Positions 17,669 to 64,000 of a stretch of 64,000 bases of DNA are shown here, in pieces (position 1 is the first letter of the stretch; each line of letters starts with the position of its first letter). The DNA is from Clostridia bacterium (GTDB lineage: Bacteria > Bacillota > Clostridia > Oscillospirales > CAG-272). The translations under genes and the position numbers were made by a program. The notes below the pieces were generated by a model. The model made no database searches and was not told where the DNA came from. It saw only the letters and a list, made by a program, of their open reading frames with translations. The stretch lies in NCBI GenBank assembly GCA_017621655.1, contig JAGASS010000027.1:1719-65718 (forward strand), given 5' to 3'.

Positions 17669-17679
17669 TCGGAACGTTA

Positions 17680-17902
17680 TTGTAGGGGGCGACTGCCACG
17701 CGAACCCCCCAAAGCTCATTACATTCGCTTCGGGGAACCCCTCGCCCCACGCAAAAACGATGTTGCATCACATCCGAACACCTCATCCACCGCAGACGCA
17801 GCGTCTGCGGTCCCCCTTCCCCCGCTGGGGAAGGTAGACAACGTGGCGAATCTTCGATACGTTGTTTGTAGGGGGCGACGTCCTCGACGCCCCGTTTCGT
17901 AG
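17680..17902. repeat. Intergenic repeat family A, long composite copy (TGTAGGGGGCGAC ... CGACGCCCCG ends)
   Basis: It starts TTGTAGGGGGCGACTGCCACGCGAACCCCCCAAAGCTCATTACATTCGCTTCGGGGAACCCCT, continues through CGCAAAAACGATGTTGCATCAC and a CCGCAGACGCAGCGTCTGCGG hairpin, and ends TGTAGGGGGCGACGTCCTCGACGCCCCG. Related copies are listed below. Confidence 0.75.
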
Positions 17903-17974
17903 GCAGTGTATCTTTTTTGATTGAGGGAAAGATATTTTTCATAGAGTGTCGTGTGTTATAAAATATCAAGCGTG

Positions 17975-18057
17975 GTATTGCGGGGCGTCGAGGTGAGGGG
18001 TTCCCTAAAACGAGTGAAGCGAGTTTTTGGGGTTCCCGAGGTTGTCGCCCCCTACAA
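17975..18057. repeat. Intergenic repeat family A, about 83-bp copy (inverted relative to 17680)
   Basis: GTATTGCGGGGCGTCGAGGTGAGGGGTTCCCTAAAACGAGTGAAGCGAGTTTTTGGGGTTCCCGAGGTTGTCGCCCCCTACAA, nearly identical to 50541-50622. Confidence 0.85.
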
Positions 18058-25535: not shown

Positions 25536-25541
25536 TAAAAA

Positions 25542-25700
25542 ATCTTTTTGGGGCGTGGTGAGATTCCACACCGGCGGTGACAGTCCGCGAACACTTATGT
25601 GCCGAATGGGTGAAATTCCCATACCGACGGTATAGTCCGGATGAGAAAAGAGAGCCGTGCTTTGCGTCCCCTTTTGTCGACGCGAAGCTTTTTCTTTTCG
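25542..25700 (+). promoter_or_regulatory. FMN riboswitch (RFN element) with expression platform
   Basis: GGGGCGTGGTGAGATTCCACACCGGCGGTGACAGTCCGCGA...GGGTGAAATTCCCATACCGACGGTATAGTCCGGATGAGAAAAGAGAG matches the RFN core. It lies directly upstream of ribU. Confidence 0.85.
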
Positions 25701-26908: not shown

Positions 26909-27033
26909 CCGTAGGGGCGACCCTTGGGAACCCCCAAAGCTCATTGCATTCGCTTCGGGGAACCCCGATATTGGTCGCCCGCGCGAAAACGATGTAACAT
27001 CACGTCCAAACGGGGCGTCGAGGACGTCGGCAC
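26909..27033. repeat. Intergenic repeat family A copy
   Basis: CCGTAGGGGCGACCCTTGGGAACCCCCAAAGCTCATTGCATTCGCTTCGGGGAACCCC...CGCGCGAAAACGATGTAACATCACGTCCAAACGGGGCGTCGAGGACGTCGGCACC is collinear with 17680-17780. Confidence 0.8.
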
Positions 27034-27060
27034 CTATGATGAATTTTCAAGATCCATAAC

Positions 27061-31207: not shown

Positions 31208-31290
31208 TGGTTTGTGGGTTTCCTTTTACTAAAATTTGCTTATATAATATAATTCTTACATTTATTATATTACACCGTTTTATACGGGCT

Positions 31291-31385
31291 GTCGAGGGCG
31301 CCAGCCCCTACCAAGCAGCTTTTAAAAGTTTCTCGGTAGGGGTCGGCGCCTACGACGACCCGCGGCTCCCCGAAACGGGGAGCCG
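31291..31385. repeat. Hairpin repeat (family A-like variant) inside the glgA-glgP spacer
   Basis: GGGCGCCAGCCCCTACC...GGTAGGGGTCGGCGCC arms plus the GGCTCCCCGAAACGGGGAGCC hairpin. Confidence 0.6.
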
Positions 31386-33952: not shown

Positions 33953-35140
33953 TCAATATACTGCCTTGGCGGCGATAACTTCGCCGTCGGGTACTGTTTT
34001 ATCGCTTCCGACAACGGCAACGCCCCATTCGGGCGAATCCGTCTTTTCCGCACCAACGTGTGCGCCCTTGCCGACGGTACATCTTTCGCCGACGATAGCG
34101 TATTCTACCGTTGCGCCGCTCTTAATTACCGAGTTAGGCATTATTACAGTATCGGTAACGACTGCGCCCTCCTCAATATAGCAGCCGGTCGAGATGACGG
34201 AGTTTTCAACTCTTCCCTTGATCACGCAGCCCTCTGCAATGTGAGAGTTCTTTACCACCGATCCCTTTACAATATTGGACGGCGGCTGTGCGTAGTTACG
34301 GCTGTATATCTTGAATTTCTTAGGCGCGTTTACGTTTATCGGATGGCTCGGGTCGAGCAGGTCCATATTTGCCTGCCAGAGCGAATCGAGCGTTCCGACG
34401 TCACGCCAATAGCCGTCGAAGGTATATGCGTAAAGACCTCTGCCGTCGTTAAGAAGCGCAGGGATGACGTTTTTACCGAAGTCATTACTCGAGGTCACGT
34501 CGTTCTCGTCGTCGATAAGGTACTGACGGAGCGTCTTCCAGGTGAATATGTACACGCCCATAGATGCGAGATTACTCTTCGGCACCTTCGGCTTTTCCTC
34601 AAACTCCGTGATGCGGTCTGTCTCGTCGGTGCTCATAATTCCCATTCTCGACGCTTCCTCGATCGGAACAGTACGAACTGCGATAGTACATTCAGCGTTC
34701 TTTTCCTTATGGAAGGAGAGCATCTTCGAGTAGTCCATCTTATAGATGTGGTCACCCGAGAGGATAAGAACGTACTCCGGATTATAGCGGTCTATGAAGT
34801 GAATATTCTGATAGATCGCGTTCGCGGTTCCCTTGTACCACGAATTGTCCTTCGTCTTCATATACGGCGGGAGAACGTGAACTCCGCCAAAGTTTCGGTT
34901 TAAGTCCCAGGGCTGACCGTTTCCGATGTAGTCGTTAAGCTCAAGGGGCTGGTACTGCGTTAAGATACCGACGGTGTCGATACCCGAGTTTACGCAGTTG
35001 GAAAGCGAATAGTCGATGATTCTGTACTTTCCTCCGAAGGGTACTGCGGGCTTTGCCGTGTTCTCGGTGAGAACGTAAAGGCGGCTGCCCTGGCCTCCTG
35101 CTAGAAGCATCGCGATACATTCCTTGCTTCTTACTGGCAT
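33953..35140 (-). CDS. glgC: Glucose-1-phosphate adenylyltransferase
   Basis: [45 protein letters not shown]. Confidence 0.93.
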
Positions 35141-35223
35141 TAAATAAACCTTCTTTCTTTTCCTCGCTAAACGAGATTGTTTTATAATTTGTCCGCGCTC
35201 TCGGCGGAGATAGGTCGGTGTTT

Positions 35224-35406
35224 TGCCTCCCTCCGGGAGGGAGGTGGCATTTGCAGAGCAAATGCCGGAGGGAGCCCGCGATGTAAATCATCTTGAAGAG
35301 TTGCCCATCTCTTCCAAGGCGGCTCCATAAAAATATGTTATTGAATGTCTTTCGCCCGGTGGCTCCTTCAGTCTGCTTCGCAGACAGCTCCCTCTCGGAG
35401 GGAGCC
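35224..35406. repeat. Intergenic repeat family B (multi-hairpin element) in the glgB-glgC spacer
   Basis: GCCTCCCTCCGGGAGGGAGGTGGCATTTGCAGAGCAAATGCC...CGCCCGGTGGCTCCTTCAGTCTGCTTCGCAGACAGCTCCCTCTCGGAGGGAGCC, homologous to 58364-58570. Confidence 0.8.
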
Positions 35407-35417
35407 ATAAAGTCGAA

Positions 35418-37250
35418 TCACTTTCTTATATACGTCATCTTATAAAAGCTTGCCGACATTGGCGGAATATCGAAGGATGCCGACTGATCGTGTCCGTCAA
35501 ACGGAATATCGTCGGTCTTTATCTTCTCACTTCCTCCGCCCGTCGTGAACACCTGCTTCAAAATACACTTTTTCGGTATTCCGATGCGGTAACCGGGACG
35601 GTGAACGGGGCAGAAATTGAACACTGCGATAAGCTCGTTTCCCTTTCTGTCTATACGTCGGAAAGCAAACACGCTGTTGTCGCGGTCATCGACCTTGAGC
35701 CACGAAAAGCCGTTCCAATCGTTATCGTTTTCCCATAGCGGCGGATTATTTAGGTAGAAGTGATTGAGCGCGCGGGTGAATCTCTGCATATCCGCGTGGC
35801 TTTCATAACCGAGCAAGAACCAGTCAAGCTCGCGCTTTTCGTCCCACTCGATAAACTGCCCAAACTCGCCGCCCATAAATAAGAGCTTTTTACCCGGATG
35901 CGCCATCAGGTAGGAATAAAGCACCTTAAGCGACGCGAACTTCGTTCCGTAGTCTCCCGGCATACGCCCGATAAGCGATAGCTTACCGTGTACGACCTCG
36001 TCGTGCGAGAACGGAAGAACGTGATTCTCCGAGAACGCGTACGTCAGCGAAAAGGTTATCTTATCGTGGTCATATTTTCTATATATCGGGTCTGCCGACA
36101 TATAGTCGAGGGTGTCGTGCATCCAGCCCATATTCCACTTGAAGCCGAAGCCGAGTCCTCCGTCATAATCCGGCTTTGTTACAAGCGGGAACGACGTTGC
36201 CTCCTCCGCTATCATCATAACGGCAGGATTCGTTTTGTACGCAACCGCGTTCATATCGCGAATCAGGCGCACCGCGTCGTGATTGACCGAATCGTACGGC
36301 TTTCGCCAGCAGTCGGGATCGCGCGCGTAATCTTTATATATCATATTTGTGACGGCGTCACAGCGAATACCGTCAACGTGATATTCCTTTATCCAATATC
36401 TGATATTCGAGATAAGGAACGCCCTTACCTCGTTTCTGCCGAAGTCAAAGAGGCGCGTTCCCCATTCGGGATGCTCGCGGCGGCTCGGATCGCGGTTTTC
36501 GTAGCAACAGCTGCCGTCGAATTCGTATAAACCGCATTCGTCCTTCGGGAAGTGCGCTCCGACCCAATCGATTATCACGCCGATCCCTGCCTGATGCAGA
36601 CGGTCGACAAGATACATAAAATCGTGCGGCGTGCCGTAACGCGAGGTCGGTGCATAGTAGCCCGTAACCTGATAGCCCCACGATCCGTCAAACGGATGCT
36701 CCGCAACGGGAAGAAACTCAACGTGAGTGTATCCCATATCGGTAAGGTACGGAACTAGATCATCGGCGAGCGCGCGGTAAGAATAGAAATTTCCGTCCTC
36801 ATACTTGCGCCAGGAGCCGAGGTGCATCTCGTATATATTGACGGGGGAATTAAGCGGATTCCGCCTCTTCGCCGCCCTCATATACTTGCCGTCGCCCCAT
36901 TCATAGCCCGAGAGGTCAAATACTCTTGATGCAGTTTCGGGGCGCGTACAGGTATGGAAACCGTAGGGGTCGGCTTTCATTACAAACGAGCCGTCGGGGC
37001 GTTCTATATAATATTTATATTCGTCGAACTGACTTGCCTGAACACGGCATTCGAAAAAGCCGCCGAGGTTATTCATTACGGGGGCGTTTCTATCCCAGCC
37101 GTTAAAGCGTCCGACAACTCTTACGCTCCTCGCTTCGGGCGCCCAGACGCGGAAAACGTAGGAATCTCCGTCACGGTGACAGCCGAGATACTCGTATGCA
37201 CAGTCACAGTATCCGTCCCATATCGCTCTTTTGTATTCTTCGTGCGTCAA
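35418..37250 (-). CDS. glgB: 1,4-alpha-glucan branching enzyme
   Basis: FRVWAPEARSVRVVGRFNGWD and GH13 regions (DWVGAHF, GIRCDAV, EEATSFP, FSHDEV). Confidence 0.92.
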   Translation of the reverse strand: MTHEEYKRAIWDGYCDCAYEYLGCHRDGDSYVFRVWAPEARSVRVVGRFNGWDRNAPVMNNLGGFFECRVQASQFDEYKYYIERPDGSFVMKADPYGFHTCTRPETASRVFDLSGYEWGDGKYMRAAKRRNPLNSPVNIYEMHLGSWRKYEDGNFYSYRALADDLVPYLTDMGYTHVEFLPVAEHPFDGSWGYQVTGYYAPTSRYGTPHDFMYLVDRLHQAGIGVIIDWVGAHFPKDECGLYEFDGSCCYENRDPSRREHPEWGTRLFDFGRNEVRAFLISNIRYWIKEYHVDGIRCDAVTNMIYKDYARDPDCWRKPYDSVNHDAVRLIRDMNAVAYKTNPAVMMIAEEATSFPLVTKPDYDGGLGFGFKWNMGWMHDTLDYMSADPIYRKYDHDKITFSLTYAFSENHVLPFSHDEVVHGKLSLIGRMPGDYGTKFASLKVLYSYLMAHPGKKLLFMGGEFGQFIEWDEKRELDWFLLGYESHADMQRFTRALNHFYLNNPPLWENDNDWNGFSWLKVDDRDNSVFAFRRIDRKGNELIAVFNFCPVHRPGYRIGIPKKCILKQVFTTGGGSEKIKTDDIPFDGHDQSASFDIPPMSASFYKMTYIRK

Positions 37251-45456: not shown

Positions 45457-45540
45457 GTTGTTGTAGGGTGCGACGTCCACGACGCACCGTTTGGGAAGAA
45501 TGTAACATTGTTTTTTCGCGCGCGAACACAGTTCTCCCAT
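45457..45540. repeat. Intergenic repeat family A copy (inverted relative to 26909)
   Basis: GTTGTTGTAGGGTGCGACGTCCACGACGCACCGTTTGGGAAGAATGTAACATTGTTTTTTCGCGCGCGAAC is the reverse complement of the 26975-27033 module. Confidence 0.7.
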
Positions 45541-50429: not shown

Positions 50430-50470
50430 CTTGTAGGGCGGGGGCTTGCTCCCGCCGCCCCGTTTCAAAG
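50430..50470. repeat. Short family A-type hairpin
   Basis: CCTTGTAGGGCGGGGGCTTGCTCCCGCCGCCCCGTTTCAAAGG. Confidence 0.6.
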
Positions 50471-50540
50471 GTAATGAATCTTTGTTGCGAGAATTAAATG
50501 TCTTATGATAGAATTTTGCGTTTTACAAAATCTAATCGTT

Positions 50541-50622
50541 GTATTGCGGGGCGTCGAGGTAGGGGTTCCCGAAAACGAGCAAGGCGAGTTTTTGGGGTTC
50601 CCGAGGTTGTCGCCCCCTACAA
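50541..50622. repeat. Intergenic repeat family A, about 82-bp copy
   Basis: GTATTGCGGGGCGTCGAGGTAGGGGTTCCCGAAAACGAGCAAGGCGAGTTTTTGGGGTTCCCGAGGTTGTCGCCCCCTACAA, near-identical to 17975-18057. Confidence 0.85.
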
Positions 50623-50712
50623 AAACGTCGCACAAACTCCTTAATTAAATCAATAATCCCGCATATAATTATTCGCCTTAACATTCAAAATCAATAATCA
50701 AGGATCCATCTT

Positions 50713-51621
50713 ATGAAAATTCACGAAAACATCGTATCAACGATCGGATCGACGCCGCTTGTGCGTCTGTCGAAATTTTTTCCACAGGGAAATCTGATCG
50801 CAAAGCTTGAATATTTTAACCCCGCAGGAAGCGCGAAGGACCGCGTTGCCGCTTCGATGATAGCCGATGCCGAAAGTAAGGGGCTTCTTAAGCCCGGCTC
50901 TGTCATAATCGAGCCGACGAGCGGAAACACGGGAATAGGACTTGCCGCAGTCGGTGCTTCAAAGGGCTATAAGGTGATCCTCACGATGCCCGACACCATG
51001 AGCATCGAGCGCAGGCGTCTCCTTTCCGCTTACGGCGCGGAAATAGTCCTGACCGACGGAAAGCTCGGCATGGCAGGTGCGATAGCGGAAGCGGAGCGTC
51101 TCGCTCAAAAATACGAAAATTCCCTCATCGCAGGTCAGTTCGATAATCCGTCAAACCCCGACGCGCACTATAAAACAACAGGTCCCGAGATCTGGTCGGA
51201 TACCGACGGTAAGGTCGATATTTTCGTCAGCGGAATCGGCACGGGCGGTACCCTCTCGGGCACTGGAAAGTATCTTAAGGAAAAGAATCCGAGTATAAAG
51301 ATCGTCGGCTTCGAGCCGTTGTCCTCCCCCCTTATAACAGAGGGCAAAGCGGGCGCGCACGGCATTCAGGGAATCGGCGCGAACTTCGTGCCGAAGAATT
51401 ACGACGCATCGGTCTGCGACGAGGTCGTGACCGTTTCCGACTCCGACGCATTCGAGTGTGCTAAACAGCTCGCGAGAACCGAGGGCTTCCTCGTCGGCAT
51501 CAGCTCGGGCGCCGCGCTCTTCGCCGCGTCAAAGCTCGCACTTGAAAACCCCGATAAAACAGTCGTAGCACTCCTCCCCGACGGCGGCGAAAGATACCTT
51601 TCAACAGGAATATATGATTAA
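50713..51621 (+). CDS. cysK: Cysteine synthase A (O-acetylserine sulfhydrylase)
   Basis: GSTPLVRL, NPAGSAKDR, EPTSGNTGIGLA and GIGTGGT. Confidence 0.92.
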   Translation: MKIHENIVSTIGSTPLVRLSKFFPQGNLIAKLEYFNPAGSAKDRVAASMIADAESKGLLKPGSVIIEPTSGNTGIGLAAVGASKGYKVILTMPDTMSIERRRLLSAYGAEIVLTDGKLGMAGAIAEAERLAQKYENSLIAGQFDNPSNPDAHYKTTGPEIWSDTDGKVDIFVSGIGTGGTLSGTGKYLKEKNPSIKIVGFEPLSSPLITEGKAGAHGIQGIGANFVPKNYDASVCDEVVTVSDSDAFECAKQLARTEGFLVGISSGAALFAASKLALENPDKTVVALLPDGGERYLSTGIYD

Positions 51622-51653
51622 AATAAGCTCCGAGAACATCGTTCTCGGAGCTT
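51622..51653. repeat. 32-bp perfect direct repeat, left copy (terminator hairpin)
   Basis: AATAAGCTCCGAGAACATCGTTCTCGGAGCTT, identical to 54603-54634. Internal 13-bp stem AAGCTCCGAGAAC / GTTCTCGGAGCTT with loop ATC. Confidence 0.95.
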
Positions 51654-51656
51654 TTT

Positions 51657-54398
51657 CTATTCTTTGCTATCTTTTGGTGCTTTTCCCTTTTCAGCATTAA
51701 TTCTGTCAATCTCTTCTTGAATTAACTGACCAAATTTCTTTTCATCAACTTCAACCGCACCAGTCTCATTCTGCTCTGCAGCGACGGATTTATCAGCAAA
51801 TTCGTCAAATACCTTCTGCTTGTACTCCAACAGTTGCGTAATCCTTTCATCGATCGTATTCTCGCAAAGCAGGCGATATACAAGCACATTTCGGGATTGT
51901 CCCATTCGATAAGCTCGTGATATTGCCTGATTTTCCGTTGACGGCTTAAACTGTGGTTCGCAAATAACAACCACACTGGCGGACTGTATATTCAAACCGG
52001 TTCCGCCGGATTGTATTTGCGCCAAAAGAACAGATCCTTCCGGCGCCTTATCGAACGAATCTATTATCTCTTGTCGACGCGGTGGCGGAACTGAGCCATT
52101 AATCGGTCCGTAGCAACGTTCTCCAAGAAATCCTCCGATAGAGCGAATTGTATCCAAGAAAAACGAGAAAACCAACACTTTTCGCCCTTCTGATTTTGCC
52201 TCATCAACTATTTCGAGCAGTCTTTTTGCCTTACAGGACTTGTTTCTCAAATCATCCACGTCCCACGACAGTCTGCGAGAGGCAGCATAGTTTTTAGAAA
52301 GTACATTTTGCTCATAAGTTTCTTTTTCTTCAGGATTCAACGTGCACCATTCTCTTGTCTCTATGAGTTCGGGCAACTCCGTAAGCACATCTTCGCGCTT
52401 ACGGCGATAGTAAACAGGGGCTACTCGATTTCTAAACTGCGGTGCACTGGGCATAAAAGTCATACTTTGAACCGATGTCGCTACGTTTGGTTGAAGAATT
52501 TCTATCAATGCCACCATTTCCTCAACCTTGTTTTCCAATGCCGTGCCTGTCATAAACAGCATTCTATCTGACTTCGAGCACAAGCGCTTCACGTTTATGC
52601 TTCTTCGCGCGTCTGGGTTTTTGATATAATGAGCCTCATCAACAATAATCAAATCAATTTTTTCTATACTTTCATCCTTTATGTATGCCGTCGTTTCAAA
52701 CGTTGTAACCGCAACTCCTCCTGTTTTCACCCAAGATTTTATAGCTTGCGCTCTGCCCGCGCCGTGTATTCTCGTGACTCGTAACATACTGTGCTTTACA
52801 ACTTCGCGACACCAGTTCGTTATTACGCTTGCAGGGCAAACGACGAGAAAATGGGTAGCTCCCGTATTGCGGAGAGAAACCATCGTGGCAATTGCCTGCA
52901 CGGTTTTTCCGAGACCCATTTCGTCCCCAAGCAATACATTCTTTTGGTGCAAAATATACTTGACGCCCCATTCCTGATATCGGCGGAGAGTACACAGCAA
53001 ACCGTCAGGAAAAAGGACCTCTTCCTGTATTTCTCTCGCCAGATCCTCCGGCAATCCGTAGAGACCATCGTCGTTACCCAGCGCCCCTGGAACGATCTCT
53101 TCAAGCACAGAAATGTACTCGATATTATGCTCCTGAAAATCGGCCCATGCCGTATTGGCGGAGGGTGCCGATTTTTCAGCAAGAAGAAGATTGGCGAGTT
53201 TTTTTATCTTCTTGGCGTATTCGCCTTCGACAATCGGCTTTAGTTTTTTGTATGCATCACGTGTATCCGAACGTTGTTCGTTCGTAAAGAACAGCCAACT
53301 AAGACCGTTCCCGACCATTTCAAGCGTTTCTTCGGCATTCGAAACGATCTCTCGGTTATTTTCGATAATATCGAGTAATTCTTTTCTACTGGCGGTTTTT
53401 GTTCGATAAATGCAAATCGCTTTGACAAGCTCAGTCGCCTGTTTATTACGGTCATCTGCATTTAACTTAATTTTTACGCCTTCGCTCGCCTCCTCCAAAA
53501 ATCGTTTAGCGATCCTCTTCATGGAAAAGGCGGCATTATCACTTATTCCATATATAGACGATAACTGATATGGAGAGGCGGAGTAAATATCCGCCATTGT
53601 GTCTATACCTGCATCACGAAGTGATTTAACCCTAAATCCTCCTTTTTCACGGTTAACTTCCTCAACGGGGACGCTTTTCAGTATTTGCATAGCATTAAAA
53701 GCCATCATTTTCTCTGCGGCATTCTTTACCCGATCCTTTTCCTTTTCGGCTACAGAGTTACATTTAGAAATCTCCCCTCTCAATGAATCCAATTGTGAGA
53801 ACTGATGCTGAAACGGGCTATAACCCTTCGATTCAATTATTCCGGGGCACATTGTTTCCAACGCATCTTCAAACGACGATGGATTCATCAAAAAGGTATC
53901 CCAAGCGACCTCTGCAGATACTTGACACGCTGAATCAACGTCTGAGACAAGGTGAGGGATTACTTGACCGTAGCTCCCATTAAGAATATCTGTCAACTCT
54001 CTATACGCATTCGTGGCGTTTTCTTTCGCGCGCTTTCCGCCAAAAAGCCAAGACAGCCCCGCTAATCCCGGATTAAGAGCAGTTATGTATTGTTTAACGA
54101 TAGAAGCCACTTGATCCGTATAGTTCTGAGCAGTTTCAAATGCCGATTGAGATAGAAGATACTTATAAACGTTGCGTATCAACAAATCCGTGTCCGGCGT
54201 CCTTCTCAACTCTTCGAAAGGATGCTCAAAATAGTCAAAAATCTGTTTTTTTATTGTTGTACCTGTAATCAAGCCATTGGCGATACGTGCTGTATTCGCT
54301 TGTATCTCCGTCTCCTTGGACTTTATATTATCCAATTTCAAAAGAAGTGCTTTGTGCTTTTCAATTAATTGCTTTGCTTGCTTTATGCTGAAATCCAT
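51657..54398 (-). CDS. SNF2-family (SF2) helicase/translocase with large unassigned N-terminal region containing an HhH-like segment
   Basis: The C-terminal half has LRRYQEWGV, LGDEMGLGKTVQ (motif I), IIVDEAHYIKN (DEAH), MTGTALEN, LVFSFF, LLAQIQSGGTGLN and QAISRAYRMGQ (motif VI). ATG 54398 sits behind an AAGGAGA RBS, so it is preferred over 54425. Confidence 0.9.
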   Translation of the reverse strand: MDFSIKQAKQLIEKHKALLLKLDNIKSKETEIQANTARIANGLITGTTIKKQIFDYFEHPFEELRRTPDTDLLIRNVYKYLLSQSAFETAQNYTDQVASIVKQYITALNPGLAGLSWLFGGKRAKENATNAYRELTDILNGSYGQVIPHLVSDVDSACQVSAEVAWDTFLMNPSSFEDALETMCPGIIESKGYSPFQHQFSQLDSLRGEISKCNSVAEKEKDRVKNAAEKMMAFNAMQILKSVPVEEVNREKGGFRVKSLRDAGIDTMADIYSASPYQLSSIYGISDNAAFSMKRIAKRFLEEASEGVKIKLNADDRNKQATELVKAICIYRTKTASRKELLDIIENNREIVSNAEETLEMVGNGLSWLFFTNEQRSDTRDAYKKLKPIVEGEYAKKIKKLANLLLAEKSAPSANTAWADFQEHNIEYISVLEEIVPGALGNDDGLYGLPEDLAREIQEEVLFPDGLLCTLRRYQEWGVKYILHQKNVLLGDEMGLGKTVQAIATMVSLRNTGATHFLVVCPASVITNWCREVVKHSMLRVTRIHGAGRAQAIKSWVKTGGVAVTTFETTAYIKDESIEKIDLIIVDEAHYIKNPDARRSINVKRLCSKSDRMLFMTGTALENKVEEMVALIEILQPNVATSVQSMTFMPSAPQFRNRVAPVYYRRKREDVLTELPELIETREWCTLNPEEKETYEQNVLSKNYAASRRLSWDVDDLRNKSCKAKRLLEIVDEAKSEGRKVLVFSFFLDTIRSIGGFLGERCYGPINGSVPPPRRQEIIDSFDKAPEGSVLLAQIQSGGTGLNIQSASVVVICEPQFKPSTENQAISRAYRMGQSRNVLVYRLLCENTIDERITQLLEYKQKVFDEFADKSVAAEQNETGAVEVDEKKFGQLIQEEIDRINAEKGKAPKDSKE

Positions 54399-54602
54399 TT
54401 TAGGTATTCTCCTTATTCGATGCAAACATGCGCCTGCTTAGTGCATTTCAAAGAATCGATTTTACCCCCTCGCAGAGATCGAAAAAGCATTTATCTTTTC
54501 GCCTATTATTTTATCACAAATCATTGTAGTGTACAATACATTTTGTCAGCTTTTGTATAATGGTTTCGCCAATAATTGTTATTACAGCGTTTCAATAATA
54601 AC

Positions 54603-54634
54603 AATAAGCTCCGAGAACATCGTTCTCGGAGCTT
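54603..54634. repeat. 32-bp perfect direct repeat, right copy (terminator hairpin)
   Basis: Identical to 51622-51653. It lies 6 nt downstream of the stop of the minus-strand membrane-protein gene. Confidence 0.95.
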
Positions 54635-54640
54635 GCTTTA

Positions 54641-55018
54641 TTATAAGGTTTCCGACAGAAAGTCGAAAAATCTTTCCCACGGCTCGACCATGAAAAACGC
54701 GATAAATGCGACGGCGATAAATTGTATCCACCAAATATATTTATTGTATCCCAGCTTATCGGAGACGTTGTAATTGAACATCAAGGTCACAACAAACGCG
54801 GCAACAGACAAAATTCCCGCAATCAATGCAAGCCAATACATAACTACGGATTGACTGTCTTCGGGTACATTTGAGTCAATGTTGTGAACAGTACCGATCG
54901 TGCCTATGCACCGAAACAGACACTCTATTCCAAAGCTCAAAACCACCGCATAAACGAGAGCAAATAATATGACGAATAAAAATTTGTGTTTTTTCACTTC
55001 TTCACCTCCTTCGAGCAT
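54641..55018 (-). CDS. Hypothetical small membrane protein (4 TM)
   Basis: Hydrophobic helices (FLFVILFALVYAVVLSF, MYWLALIAGILSVAAFVVTLMF, IWWIQFIAVAFIAFFMV). The likely start is GTG 54997 behind GGAGGTG. Confidence 0.6.
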   Translation of the reverse strand: MLEGGEEVKKHKFLFVILFALVYAVVLSFGIECLFRCIGTIGTVHNIDSNVPEDSQSVVMYWLALIAGILSVAAFVVTLMFNYNVSDKLGYNKYIWWIQFIAVAFIAFFMVEPWERFFDFLSETL

Positions 55019-58208: not shown

Positions 58209-58363
58209 AATAAATAATAAATATCCACCCGCATAAGCGGGTGGTATTTCATTTTCGGGCATAGCCCTAATACTACTTGCTGCGCACAAGTGCGCCTTAA
58301 ATTGGCCTACCAGCCACGCATCGGCTACCTGCTACCCGTAAACGGGTTTAGGGACGTTTCATT

Positions 58364-58570
58364 GCCTCCCTCCGGGAGGGAGGTGGATTTTTGCGAAGCA
58401 AAAAGACGGAAGGAGCACGCGATGAAAGGGATTATAGAGCGTTGTCCTTTTCATTAGGGCGGTTCTGTAAATATCTTTTATCGAGCGTTTCCCGCCCGAT
58501 GGCTCCTTCAGTCAGCTACGCTGACAGCTCCCGTAGGTTGCGCAGCAAACTACTCCGGAGTTGGAGCCAT
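58364..58570. repeat. Intergenic repeat family B, second copy
   Basis: GCCTCCCTCCGGGAGGGAGGTGGATTTTTGCGAAGCAAAAAG...CGCCCGATGGCTCCTTCAGTCAGCTACGCTGACAGCTCCC...GGAGTTGGAGCC. Confidence 0.8.
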
Positions 58571-58710
58571 TGGCGCGAACTGCCCTTAAACCGCATTTTT
58601 TCTTCACATCATTTCTGTTCATCGGTAAACCTATATTGAACCCCGCCACTATGGCGGGGATTTCATTTACAGCAAAAGGCAGAGACCAAACTGAGGTCTC
58701 TGTCTTTTTA

Positions 58711-61590: not shown

Positions 61591-62619
61591 TCAAAACTTC
61601 GTAAAACCTAAATCGTCAAAGGAATATTCCATGTTTTCTACTTCAAGAAATCTCTCAAGGCAGCTGAGCAGATCGCAAATGCCCTGCCTGCTCATTTCCA
61701 TAAATTCGTTCTGCATATCGGTCGCGCCGGTATAACGAGAACATGGCAATGGATAATTTTTAGTAAAATCAGACGCTACTATCGTACCGGTTGCCTCGTA
61801 GCGAGATACACCGGTATCTCGGTAGTAGTATGAAGTTATGTAAGTATATTTGCCGGTGTGCGTTTTAGGAACGTATATATAGAAATTTATGCTGAATGTA
61901 TCGTTCAAAACACTGTGTAAGCAGAATTCTATTTTTTCGGTATCTGCCCAATAATACAGAGAAAAGCTTTCGGACGCGTATCCTCCGTAATTATCAGCGG
62001 TGTTTGAATAATAGCAGTGGTCTCCGTTTACTGTACCGTTTTGAATCACGAAATTTTTGAGATATCCGTATATATCCTTAGGTTTGTTTTGTGGCGGCTT
62101 CGTCGTACTTGGCGTGGTTTGCGGCGGCTTCGTCGTATTCGGCTTGGTTTGAGTCGGCTCTGTCGTATTCGGCGTGCTTTCGGGCGGTTCCGTCGTATTC
62201 GGCGTGCTTTCGGGCGGATCTGTCGTAATTATCGTTCCTCCCGGAATAGTATGAGACGGTTCGCCATTGTTTTTCGCACCGAAAATTCCAGATATCCATA
62301 GAATGAGAGCAATCACCAAAAGCAAACAGAATATTAAGCATACGACCAATATGTACTTTTTCTTATTTGAGGGTGTATCGTTTTGAGGTTTCGCTTGGGG
62401 AACGGCCACGGGCTCGGGCTCGGACTCGTCCGCAGACAGCAATTTGTCGGTAGAAACATCAAACAGTTTAGCTAAGGCGACTATATTGTCAAGAGACGGT
62501 TGTGTCTGTCCGGTCTCCCAAAGACTGATGCTTTGTCTTGTTACTTTTAATTTGTCAGCTAATTCGTCCTGTGACATGTGATTTAATTTACGGTACTTTC
62601 TAATGTTATCACTCAGCAT
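61591..62619 (-). CDS. Membrane-anchored XRE-HTH protein with Pro/Thr-rich repeat linker and unassigned extracytoplasmic domain
   Basis: MLSDNIRKYRKLNHMSQDELADKLKVTRQSISLWETGQTQPSLDNIVALAKLF (HTH_3), the TM helix YILVVCLIFCLLLVIALILWI, PPESTPNTTE repeats, and a roughly 160-aa C-terminal domain. ATG 62619 is preferred over GTG 62628. Confidence 0.8.
   Translation of the reverse strand: MLSDNIRKYRKLNHMSQDELADKLKVTRQSISLWETGQTQPSLDNIVALAKLFDVSTDKLLSADESEPEPVAVPQAKPQNDTPSNKKKYILVVCLIFCLLLVIALILWISGIFGAKNNGEPSHTIPGGTIITTDPPESTPNTTEPPESTPNTTEPTQTKPNTTKPPQTTPSTTKPPQNKPKDIYGYLKNFVIQNGTVNGDHCYYSNTADNYGGYASESFSLYYWADTEKIEFCLHSVLNDTFSINFYIYVPKTHTGKYTYITSYYYRDTGVSRYEATGTIVASDFTKNYPLPCSRYTGATDMQNEFMEMSRQGICDLLSCLERFLEVENMEYSFDDLGFTKF
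62080..62217 (-). repeat. Tandem 30-nt coding repeat (about 4.5 units) encoding PPESTPNTTE-type decapeptides
   Basis: The peptide units are PPESTPNTTE, PPESTPNTTE, PTQTKPNTTK, PPQTTPSTTK and PPQNKP. The DNA shows matching periodicity. Confidence 0.85.
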
Positions 62620-63136: not shown

Positions 63137-63212
63137 TGGAGGCGACATCCAGATTTGAACTGGAGAATAACGGTTTTGCAGACCGTGGCCTTACCACTTG
63201 GCTATGTCGCCG
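63137..63212 (-). tRNA. tRNA-Cys (anticodon GCA), CCA encoded
   Basis: The reverse complement is GGCGACATAGCCAAGTGGTAAGGCCACGGTCTGCAAAACCGTTATTCTCCAGTTCAAATCTGGATGTCGCCTCCA. It folds as a cloverleaf with a 7-bp acceptor stem GGCGACA/TGTCGCC, anticodon loop CTGCAAA and T-loop TTCAAAT. Confidence 0.92.
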
Positions 63213-63941: not shown

Positions 63942-64000
63942 GGAGCGGATTACGGGGCTCGAACCCGCCACCTCCACCTTGGCAAGGTGGCGCTCTACCA
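63942..64000 (-). tRNA. tRNA-Gly (anticodon GCC), 3' portion; the 5' end lies beyond the right window edge
   Basis: The reverse complement is ...TGGTAGAGCGCCACCTTGCCAAGGTGGAGGTGGCGGGTTCGAGCCCCGTAATCCGCTCCA, with anticodon loop TTGCCAA, T-arm GCGGGTTCGAGCCCCGT and a terminal CCA. Confidence 0.85.

Follow-up and report, generated by a model that had tools for sequence, protein, structure and literature searches.

A multi-hairpin element lies between glgB and glgC in the glycogen gene row of a ruminant-gut bacterium of the Oscillospirales (contig JAGASS010000027.1), and a second copy is found elsewhere in the window, the 64,000-nucleotide stretch of that contig that was analysed. The locus raises the question of whether the element is an RNA switch dedicated to the glycogen operon or repeat DNA that has entered it. 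The latter seems to apply, the repeat being of a selfish kind. The reading judged fairly probable is that of a non-autonomous interspersed palindromic repeat, REPIN- or BIME-like, which consists of two inverted units of ~50 nt (flavours A and B) around a variable spacer, is inserted at the DNA level, and affects the glg mRNA only secondarily.

Anatomy of the repeat in the window

Both copies reported in a preliminary description of this DNA are present where it placed them, with cores at 35226-35406 (copy 1) and 58365-58568 (copy 2) that are ~80% identical when the two are aligned. The hairpin sequences are likewise as described: hairpin 1 (CCTCCCTC-CGG-GAGGGAGG) is the same in both copies, hairpin 2 is GGCATTTGC-AGA-GCAAATGCC in copy 1 and TTTTTGC-GAA-GCAAAAA in copy 2, and hairpin 3 is GTCTGC-TTC-GCAGAC in copy 1 and GTCAGC-TAC-GCTGAC in copy 2. 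Predicted folds of copies 1 and 2 are much more stable than those of shuffled sequence: for the + strand z is -6.9 and -6.3, for the - strand it is -5.9 and -3.9.

The four hairpins are real, but they are not four separate elements: hairpins 1 and 2, and hairpins 3 and 4, constitute one ~50-nt unit in opposite orientations, and the whole element is therefore a REPIN/BIME-like doublet. The unit consists of a big GC-rich pyrimidine/purine hairpin (CTCCCTC/GAGGGAG), TG, a small hairpin of highly variable sequence and perfect pairing with a C-GNA-G loop, and a GAGGGAG purine tract. Module A (hairpins 1 and 2 plus GGAGGGAGC; consensus GCCTCCCTCCGGGAGGGAGG-TG-[small hairpin]-GAC-G-GAaGGAGCc) is the reverse complement of module B (GGCTCCTTC plus hairpins 3 and 4; consensus, as reverse complement, gGCTCCCtCcg.GgGGGAGC-TG-[small hairpin]-GAC-T-GAGGGgGc), from which it differs at only two diagnostic positions. 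Hairpins 1 and 4, like the whole units, are inverted copies of each other and so form terminal inverted repeats such as those of a MITE. The stretch GGCTCCTTC, previously taken to be conserved and single-stranded, pairs with GGA(G/A)GGAGC and is therefore not single-stranded; the pieces formerly given that status are the trailing tracts of the two units, which pair with each other.

In copy 1, unit A (35226-35276, + strand, delimited by sequence, unit definition and regex matches) comprises the big hairpin CCTCCCTC-CGG-GAGGGAGG at 35226-35244, followed by TG, the small hairpin GGCATTTGC-AGA-GCAAATGCC at 35246-35266, and the trailing purine tract GGAGGGAGCC at 35267-35276. A spacer (CGCGATG...CGCCCGGT, 35277-35360, placed by alignments), of a kind that is conserved inside the window-type subfamily and varies in length and sequence among genomes, separates it from unit B (35361-35406, - strand), the inverted unit, whose reverse complement aligns with unit A and which reads GGCTCCTTC-A-GTCTGC-TTC-GCAGAC-A-GCTCCCTC-TCG-GAGGGAGC-C on the + strand. 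In copy 2, sequence and regex matches place unit A at 58365-58416 (+ strand), with the big hairpin at 58365-58383 followed by TG, the small hairpin at 58388-58404 and the trailing tract GGAAGGAGC at 58408-58416, and sequence and alignment place unit B, with GGCTCCTTC, at 58501-58568 (- strand), its small hairpin lying at 58511-58525. The closing stem of copy 2 is expanded, as had been noted: a nested 21-nt hairpin (GTAGGTTGC-GCA-GCAAACTAC, 58533-58553) interrupts the big hairpin 4 in its loop. The same nested hairpin is present in locus L159 and absent from L124, L156 and L217; small palindromes seem to insert into the loops of pre-existing palindromes.

Copy 2 lies between the convergent AraC-family gene and the gene for a 909-aa protein, as first described. 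It is only the core of a larger composite repeat of ~465 bp (58212-58676, + strand) that bears terminator-like hairpins at its two ends only (58225-58244 and 58641-58659) and in which no promoter-like site was found. The whole 465 bp is also present in L217, L156, L159 and L124, with different flanking genes. L124 and L217 were considered as orthologues of copy 2 and rejected: BLAST homology of the flanks stops at the ends of the 465-bp repeat, and these loci are therefore paralogous copies. No empty site was found for copy 2, the corresponding intergenic DNA of relatives being unrelated or bordered by a different gene.

Other features of the window include an FMN riboswitch (25540-25656, + strand; 105.7 bits against a gathering score of 66.2) and a second repeat family (TTGTAGGGGGCGAC... 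/ ...GGGGTTCCC), which is unrelated to the first and has copies in both direct and inverted orientation at 17674-18057, 26931-27036, 45461-45481 and 50453-50628. Four to five tandem 30-nt repeats, 73-78% identical, occur at 62078-62227, overlapped by predicted ORFs on both strands. Two terminator-like palindromes (AAGCTCCGAGAACATCGTTCTCGGAGCTT; 51614-51661 and 54595-54642), 88% identical, are situated 3 kb apart, and two tRNA genes (63140-63211 and 63944-64000, - strand) are found near the end of the window, which cuts the second.

Abundance of the family and the insertion at glgB-glgC

A family of two copies had been described; both copies stand, but the family is far larger. It is very abundant in Oscillospirales gut bacteria and in phages: the exact 22-mer of hairpin 1 occurs at no fewer than 117 genome loci, nearly all in Oscillospiraceae, Eubacteriales or Clostridia MAGs (from ruminant, chicken and human guts among the matches listed), and a degenerate 25-nt pattern of module B occurs in at least 117 IMG/VR viral contigs, these counts being drawn from the matches listed and from MAG fragments and not from complete genomes. 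Over the hairpins, metagenome depth is raised 10- to 100-fold; contigs of several gut metagenomes start or end exactly at hairpin 1 (35225-35253 of the window); thus, the repeat fragments assemblies and MAGs.

The arrangements among the matches listed are A-spacer-B, compact B-linker-A, solo B units and arrays. Spacers of the A-spacer-B form measure 60-300 nt and are conserved within a genome, not between genomes, and the spacings of both A-spacer-B and B-linker-A are tightly clustered. The compact form, with the modules in opposite order, was also encountered as two short BLAST matches in human-gut records of a phage collection. One viral contig, L057, belongs to a genuine phage (it has terminase and P22-type coat genes), and units occupy nearly all of its intergenic gaps. 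High-GC contigs also carry the unit, after the capsid gene; their capsid regions are similar to capsid regions of Pseudomonas and Desulfofustis phages. Phage contigs L004, L047 and L048 share with L040, L071 and L032 the left flank and, as far as the loop of the big hairpin, a B unit, but past that loop they diverge completely; the recombination breakpoint is inside the unit.

The family has apparently not been described before. Gathering and E-value scans of Rfam 15 with the window copies, compact phage forms and seven further loci gave only chance-level microRNA matches. BLAST against a plasmid collection gave no match to the element, window-specific patterns gave none in viral contigs, Pfam recognised no family in six-frame peptides of the element, and literature searches by sequence and by keywords yielded no description of it.

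The glgB (35418-37250), glgC (33953-35140), glgD, glgA and glgP genes (NCBIfam, which also identifies the AraC-family gene upstream of copy 2) are all on the - strand, and copy 1 does lie inside this glgBCDAP row. On one side 11 nt separate it from the stop codon of glgB and on the other 85 nt from the start codon of glgC, the 11-nt gap and the present stop codon (35418-35420) together occupying 35407-35420 on the - strand. The glgB-glgC spacer is 277 nt and filled both in the window and in contigs of the same strain (L317 and L320 among them), whereas the spacers of the five closest relatives (L324-L328; GlgC 82-87% and GlgB mostly 74-82% identical to the window) are 33, 4, 65, 57 and 40 nt and lack the element. 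In more distant relatives the spacers are mostly 5-125 nt; a metagenome scan with the GlgB C-terminus returned only relatives of at most 62% identity and served as a baseline for spacer length. The orthologous site is therefore empty in the five relatives and filled in the window strain, as expected of a mobile element, and the glg copy is an insertion specific to the window lineage. The comparison of relatives had been suggested as a check on a regulatory function, and its outcome argues against a dedicated glg role.

The sequence between the element and the glgC start codon (35141-35225, - strand) is the native glgB-glgC spacer with a relic of the ancestral glgB 3' end and a small hairpin, TCCGC...GCGGA. 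Its position makes it homologous to L326-L328, with which the best BLAST segment agrees at 18 of 21 bases, the flanks being aligned by eye. These 85 nt resemble the last glgB codons and spacer of the relatives, and the positions of two small hairpins are conserved as well. On the opposite side of the element from this relic is the functional glgB end, strongly re-coded, and ~20 bp of the glgB end flank the element on both sides as a diverged duplication. Such a layout may have arisen by a long duplication of the target, by replacement of an att-like kind or as the scar of a recombination. A possible 9-bp duplication (AAAAAAGCA) flanks the element in L156; no target-site duplication was found at window copy 2, L217 or the other copies examined, and none is consistent overall.

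Two further observations concern the spacers of the glg row. In the relatives, the native glgB-glgC junction has two small hairpins at fixed positions, their sequence differing from one relative to the next (L326:1400-1500, L327:1400-1500, L328:1420-1500); one, TCCGY-loop-RCGGA, extends over the stop codon of glgB, the other is placed before the glgC ribosome-binding site, and the pair may be a conserved intercistronic signal. A lone big hairpin (GGCTCCCCGTTTCGGGGAGCC, 31364-31384, - strand) is located 5 nt past the glgA stop codon, adjoining a piece related to the second repeat family in the glgA-glgP spacer (~31290-31360); with copy 1, repeat insertions are therefore present in two spacers of the gene row.

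Stem pairing, orientation and competing explanations

Base pairs were counted by script for each hairpin instead of by alignment column, because MAFFT shifts the small hairpin of copy 1 by one column (A6) and misplaces gaps in the small hairpins (A3). Among the matches listed, hairpin 2 (88 distinct sequences) has 534 Watson-Crick pairs out of 541, with 4 G·U, 1 A·C and 2 other mismatches, and hairpin 3 has 462, with 2 G·U, 10 A·C and no other mismatch. Big hairpins that the search pattern did not fix are similarly well paired among the matches listed, both in genome B units (372 Watson-Crick, 1 G·U, 1 A·C, 1 other) and in viral A units (329 Watson-Crick, 3 G·U, no A·C, 2 other). Pairing is thus maintained despite sequence change, as the preliminary description had maintained from two copies, and among eight window-type subfamily copies, which are 80-95% identical elsewhere in the element, hairpin 3 has seven different stems.

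The RNA interpretation is nevertheless only partly supported, since a structured RNA selected for a role in the glg transcript, as further proposed, agrees poorly with the other observations. Overall, more than 3000 Watson-Crick pairs stand beside about 10 G·U and about 12 A·C; G·U is no more frequent than A·C and both are rare, so neither RNA strand is favoured, and the G·U intermediates on one strand that would be expected of a cis-regulatory structured RNA are not seen. The stems show neither G·U tolerance nor strand asymmetry, and each half is an inverted copy of the other. Between the halves, the P1 helix contains G·T or A·C in four subfamily copies out of eight. Both hairpin 3 variants of the window recur in unrelated phage copies, which fits whole-hairpin exchange or arm-to-arm correction, much as in the arm-wise gene conversion that had been named as the case against the RNA interpretation. 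The compensatory stem changes would then stem from a requirement for a perfect hairpin combined with swapping or correction of whole hairpins, not from stepwise RNA covariation.

Approximately 75% of the bacterial matches listed are clearly intergenic, and the bacterial doublets occur in every type of intergenic region, without a fixed strand or position relative to any gene class. The gene upstream of a doublet is on the same strand in 50 cases and on the opposite strand in 31, a weak bias; co-directional gene pairs account for 21 versus 12 doublets, convergent pairs for 10 and divergent pairs for 9 (all among the matches listed). In phage contigs, where an earlier ORF-based count proved too noisy and was replaced by a test for a ribosome-binding site plus start codon, the B units listed lie a median of 57 nt upstream of a same-strand ribosome-binding site and start codon, with 63 sense versus 8 antisense units in the raw matches and 43 versus 5 after clustering of the downstream proteins. 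The sense bias could come from a function of the RNA in phages, or from insertion that is specific to one strand and tied to replication.

The unit has its own polarity. Read on its own strand, the small-hairpin loop is GNA in 74 of the 139 matches listed and TNC in 3, and its closing pair is C-G in 127; the two halves being inverted copies, the GNA-loop "sense" falls on opposite strands. Mirror symmetry relates the trailing purine tract to the purine arm of the big hairpin, and both change together between subfamilies: among the matches listed, GGGAGAG tracts accompany a GAGAGGG arm in 17 of 18 cases, GGGGGAG tracts accompany GAGGGGG in 17 cases and GAGAGGG in 14, and none of 2000 permutations reached the observed number of mirror pairs. 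A tract that mirrors a purine arm has the geometry needed for an intramolecular purine-motif triplex. Speculatively, the ~50-nt unit might be a DNA-level folding device of this H-DNA-like kind, hinged on the d(C-GNA-G) mini-hairpin, that is the recognition substrate of a strand-specific enzyme when formed on single-stranded DNA; this is improbable. If true, it would explain how the unit has spread across phages of different phyla and why it is strand-biased in phage genomes.

Against the interpretation as repeat DNA stands the proposal originally made for copy 1, a cis-acting structured RNA selected in the glg transcript for internal processing, as a stability barrier or for attenuation between glgB and glgC. 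Its location in the gene row, so close to the glgB stop codon, its - strand fold of -87 kcal/mol (z = -5.9) and the pairing kept across copies are what such an RNA would display. Nevertheless, it is unlikely: the five closest relatives dispense with the element and have small spacer hairpins of their own, the family is found in either orientation and without gene association, copy 2 lacks a promoter-like site and is outside the transcription units predicted from terminator-like hairpins, the stems do not tolerate G·U, and the P1 helix has G·T or A·C in half of the subfamily copies. Nor was any terminator-like site found on the - strand of the core in the glg spacer, where the sole such match is outside the core, on the + strand and antisense to glg. 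That match also weighs against an ordinary intrinsic terminator, to which the few T residues after hairpin 4 in many copies might point, and chance palindromes would hardly give 80% identity over ~180 nt between copies, or hundreds of related copies; these two possibilities scarcely merit belief. A remnant of site-specific (att-type) integration that replaced the glgB 3' end would account for the heavy re-coding of the functional glgB end upstream of the element and for a relic downstream that is nearer to the sequence of the relatives, as at attL/attR junctions, but the insert is only ~181 nt with no integrase, the same core is found at many unrelated sites without a common target, and the relic match is short, all of which makes this origin very doubtful.

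The phage copies suggest another alternative, namely that the unit is primarily a phage expression signal acting as RNA, either a processing or stabilising hairpin pair or a modulator of translation upstream of the ribosome-binding site, from which the bacterial doublets were derived or decayed. The placement of B units before same-strand start codons, the filling of nearly all intergenic gaps of L057 and the unit after the capsid gene in the high-GC contigs are all in keeping with such a signal. It is nonetheless considered a rather poor prospect, since strand-specific insertion into single-stranded DNA coupled to replication could equally give the bias, two units of L057 have the opposite orientation, and the polarity of the loop and purine tract marks the antisense strand of B units.

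The interspersed inverted-unit repeat is therefore preferred. Copies would spread as DNA, probably through a trans-acting enzyme of the HUH/RAYT or a similar kind that recognises single-stranded hairpins, and would be homogenised by short-patch recombination between them. No transposase or other trans-acting enzyme, no autonomous version and no A...ORF...B arrangement at 0.5-3 kb spacing was seen in the material inspected (loci of up to 8 kb and MAG fragments). In the glg transcript, the insertion is predicted to place a very stable stem-loop cluster (-87 kcal/mol) from 11 nt after the glgB stop codon.

Relation to known repeats and significance

The element is best filed with the REP/BIME/REPIN-like palindromic repeats. 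Like these, the family has a short palindromic unit repeated many times between genes; two flavours alternate in inverted orientation with characteristic linkers to give mosaics, as in REPs and BIMEs; and its doublets can form one long hairpin, as in REPINs. Copy 1 also resembles REPs in its location within an operon near a stop codon. In E. coli, REPs so placed change the stability of individual mRNA segments and affect how the upstream gene is translated. By analogy, copy 1 could uncouple the glgB segment from the glgC-P segment or stabilise them differentially, as a side effect of insertion. Unlike REPs, however, the family has a longer unit (~50 nt) with two hairpins and a purine tract, perfect instead of imperfect stems, and no GTAG/CTAC tetranucleotide, the unit consensus starting with G(C/G)CTCCC and having TG after the stem. 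Its hosts are Oscillospirales and phages, and no RAYT gene was identified in the loci of up to 8 kb and MAG fragments.

Other families are similar in part. BOX elements of Streptococcus pneumoniae and Correia/NEMIS elements of Neisseria are likewise modular or miniature intergenic repeats of strong secondary structure, often co-transcribed with neighbouring genes and variable in module number, but have no sequence similarity to the family; Correia elements differ in their TA target duplication and DDE-type inverted ends, and BOX modules in not being inverted copies of one unit. PATEs, which derive from IS200/IS605, share terminal hairpins in place of classical inverted repeats, the lack of a clear target duplication and a possible strand bias, whereas the family here has mutually inverted ends, no conserved tetra- or pentanucleotide target and no associated tnpA or tnpB that was seen. 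Catalogues of candidate structured RNAs from the human microbiome and phages report ~110-nt palindromic candidates on both strands, some of which have been suggested to be REP-like (PMC8040213, PMC10690425); they are likened to the present family by description, not by sequence.

The family will keep appearing in annotation as "covarying structured RNA" or as small hypothetical ORFs, and its recognition as an inverted-unit repeat prevents false riboregulator calls. With it, a REP/BIME-like system is found in uncultured gut Clostridia, a major group, and in phages of these bacteria; its units are built differently from the enterobacterial elements. In the window organism, the insertion lengthens the glgB-glgC junction from ~90 to 277 nt and may alter the expression of branching enzyme relative to that of ADP-glucose pyrophosphorylase.
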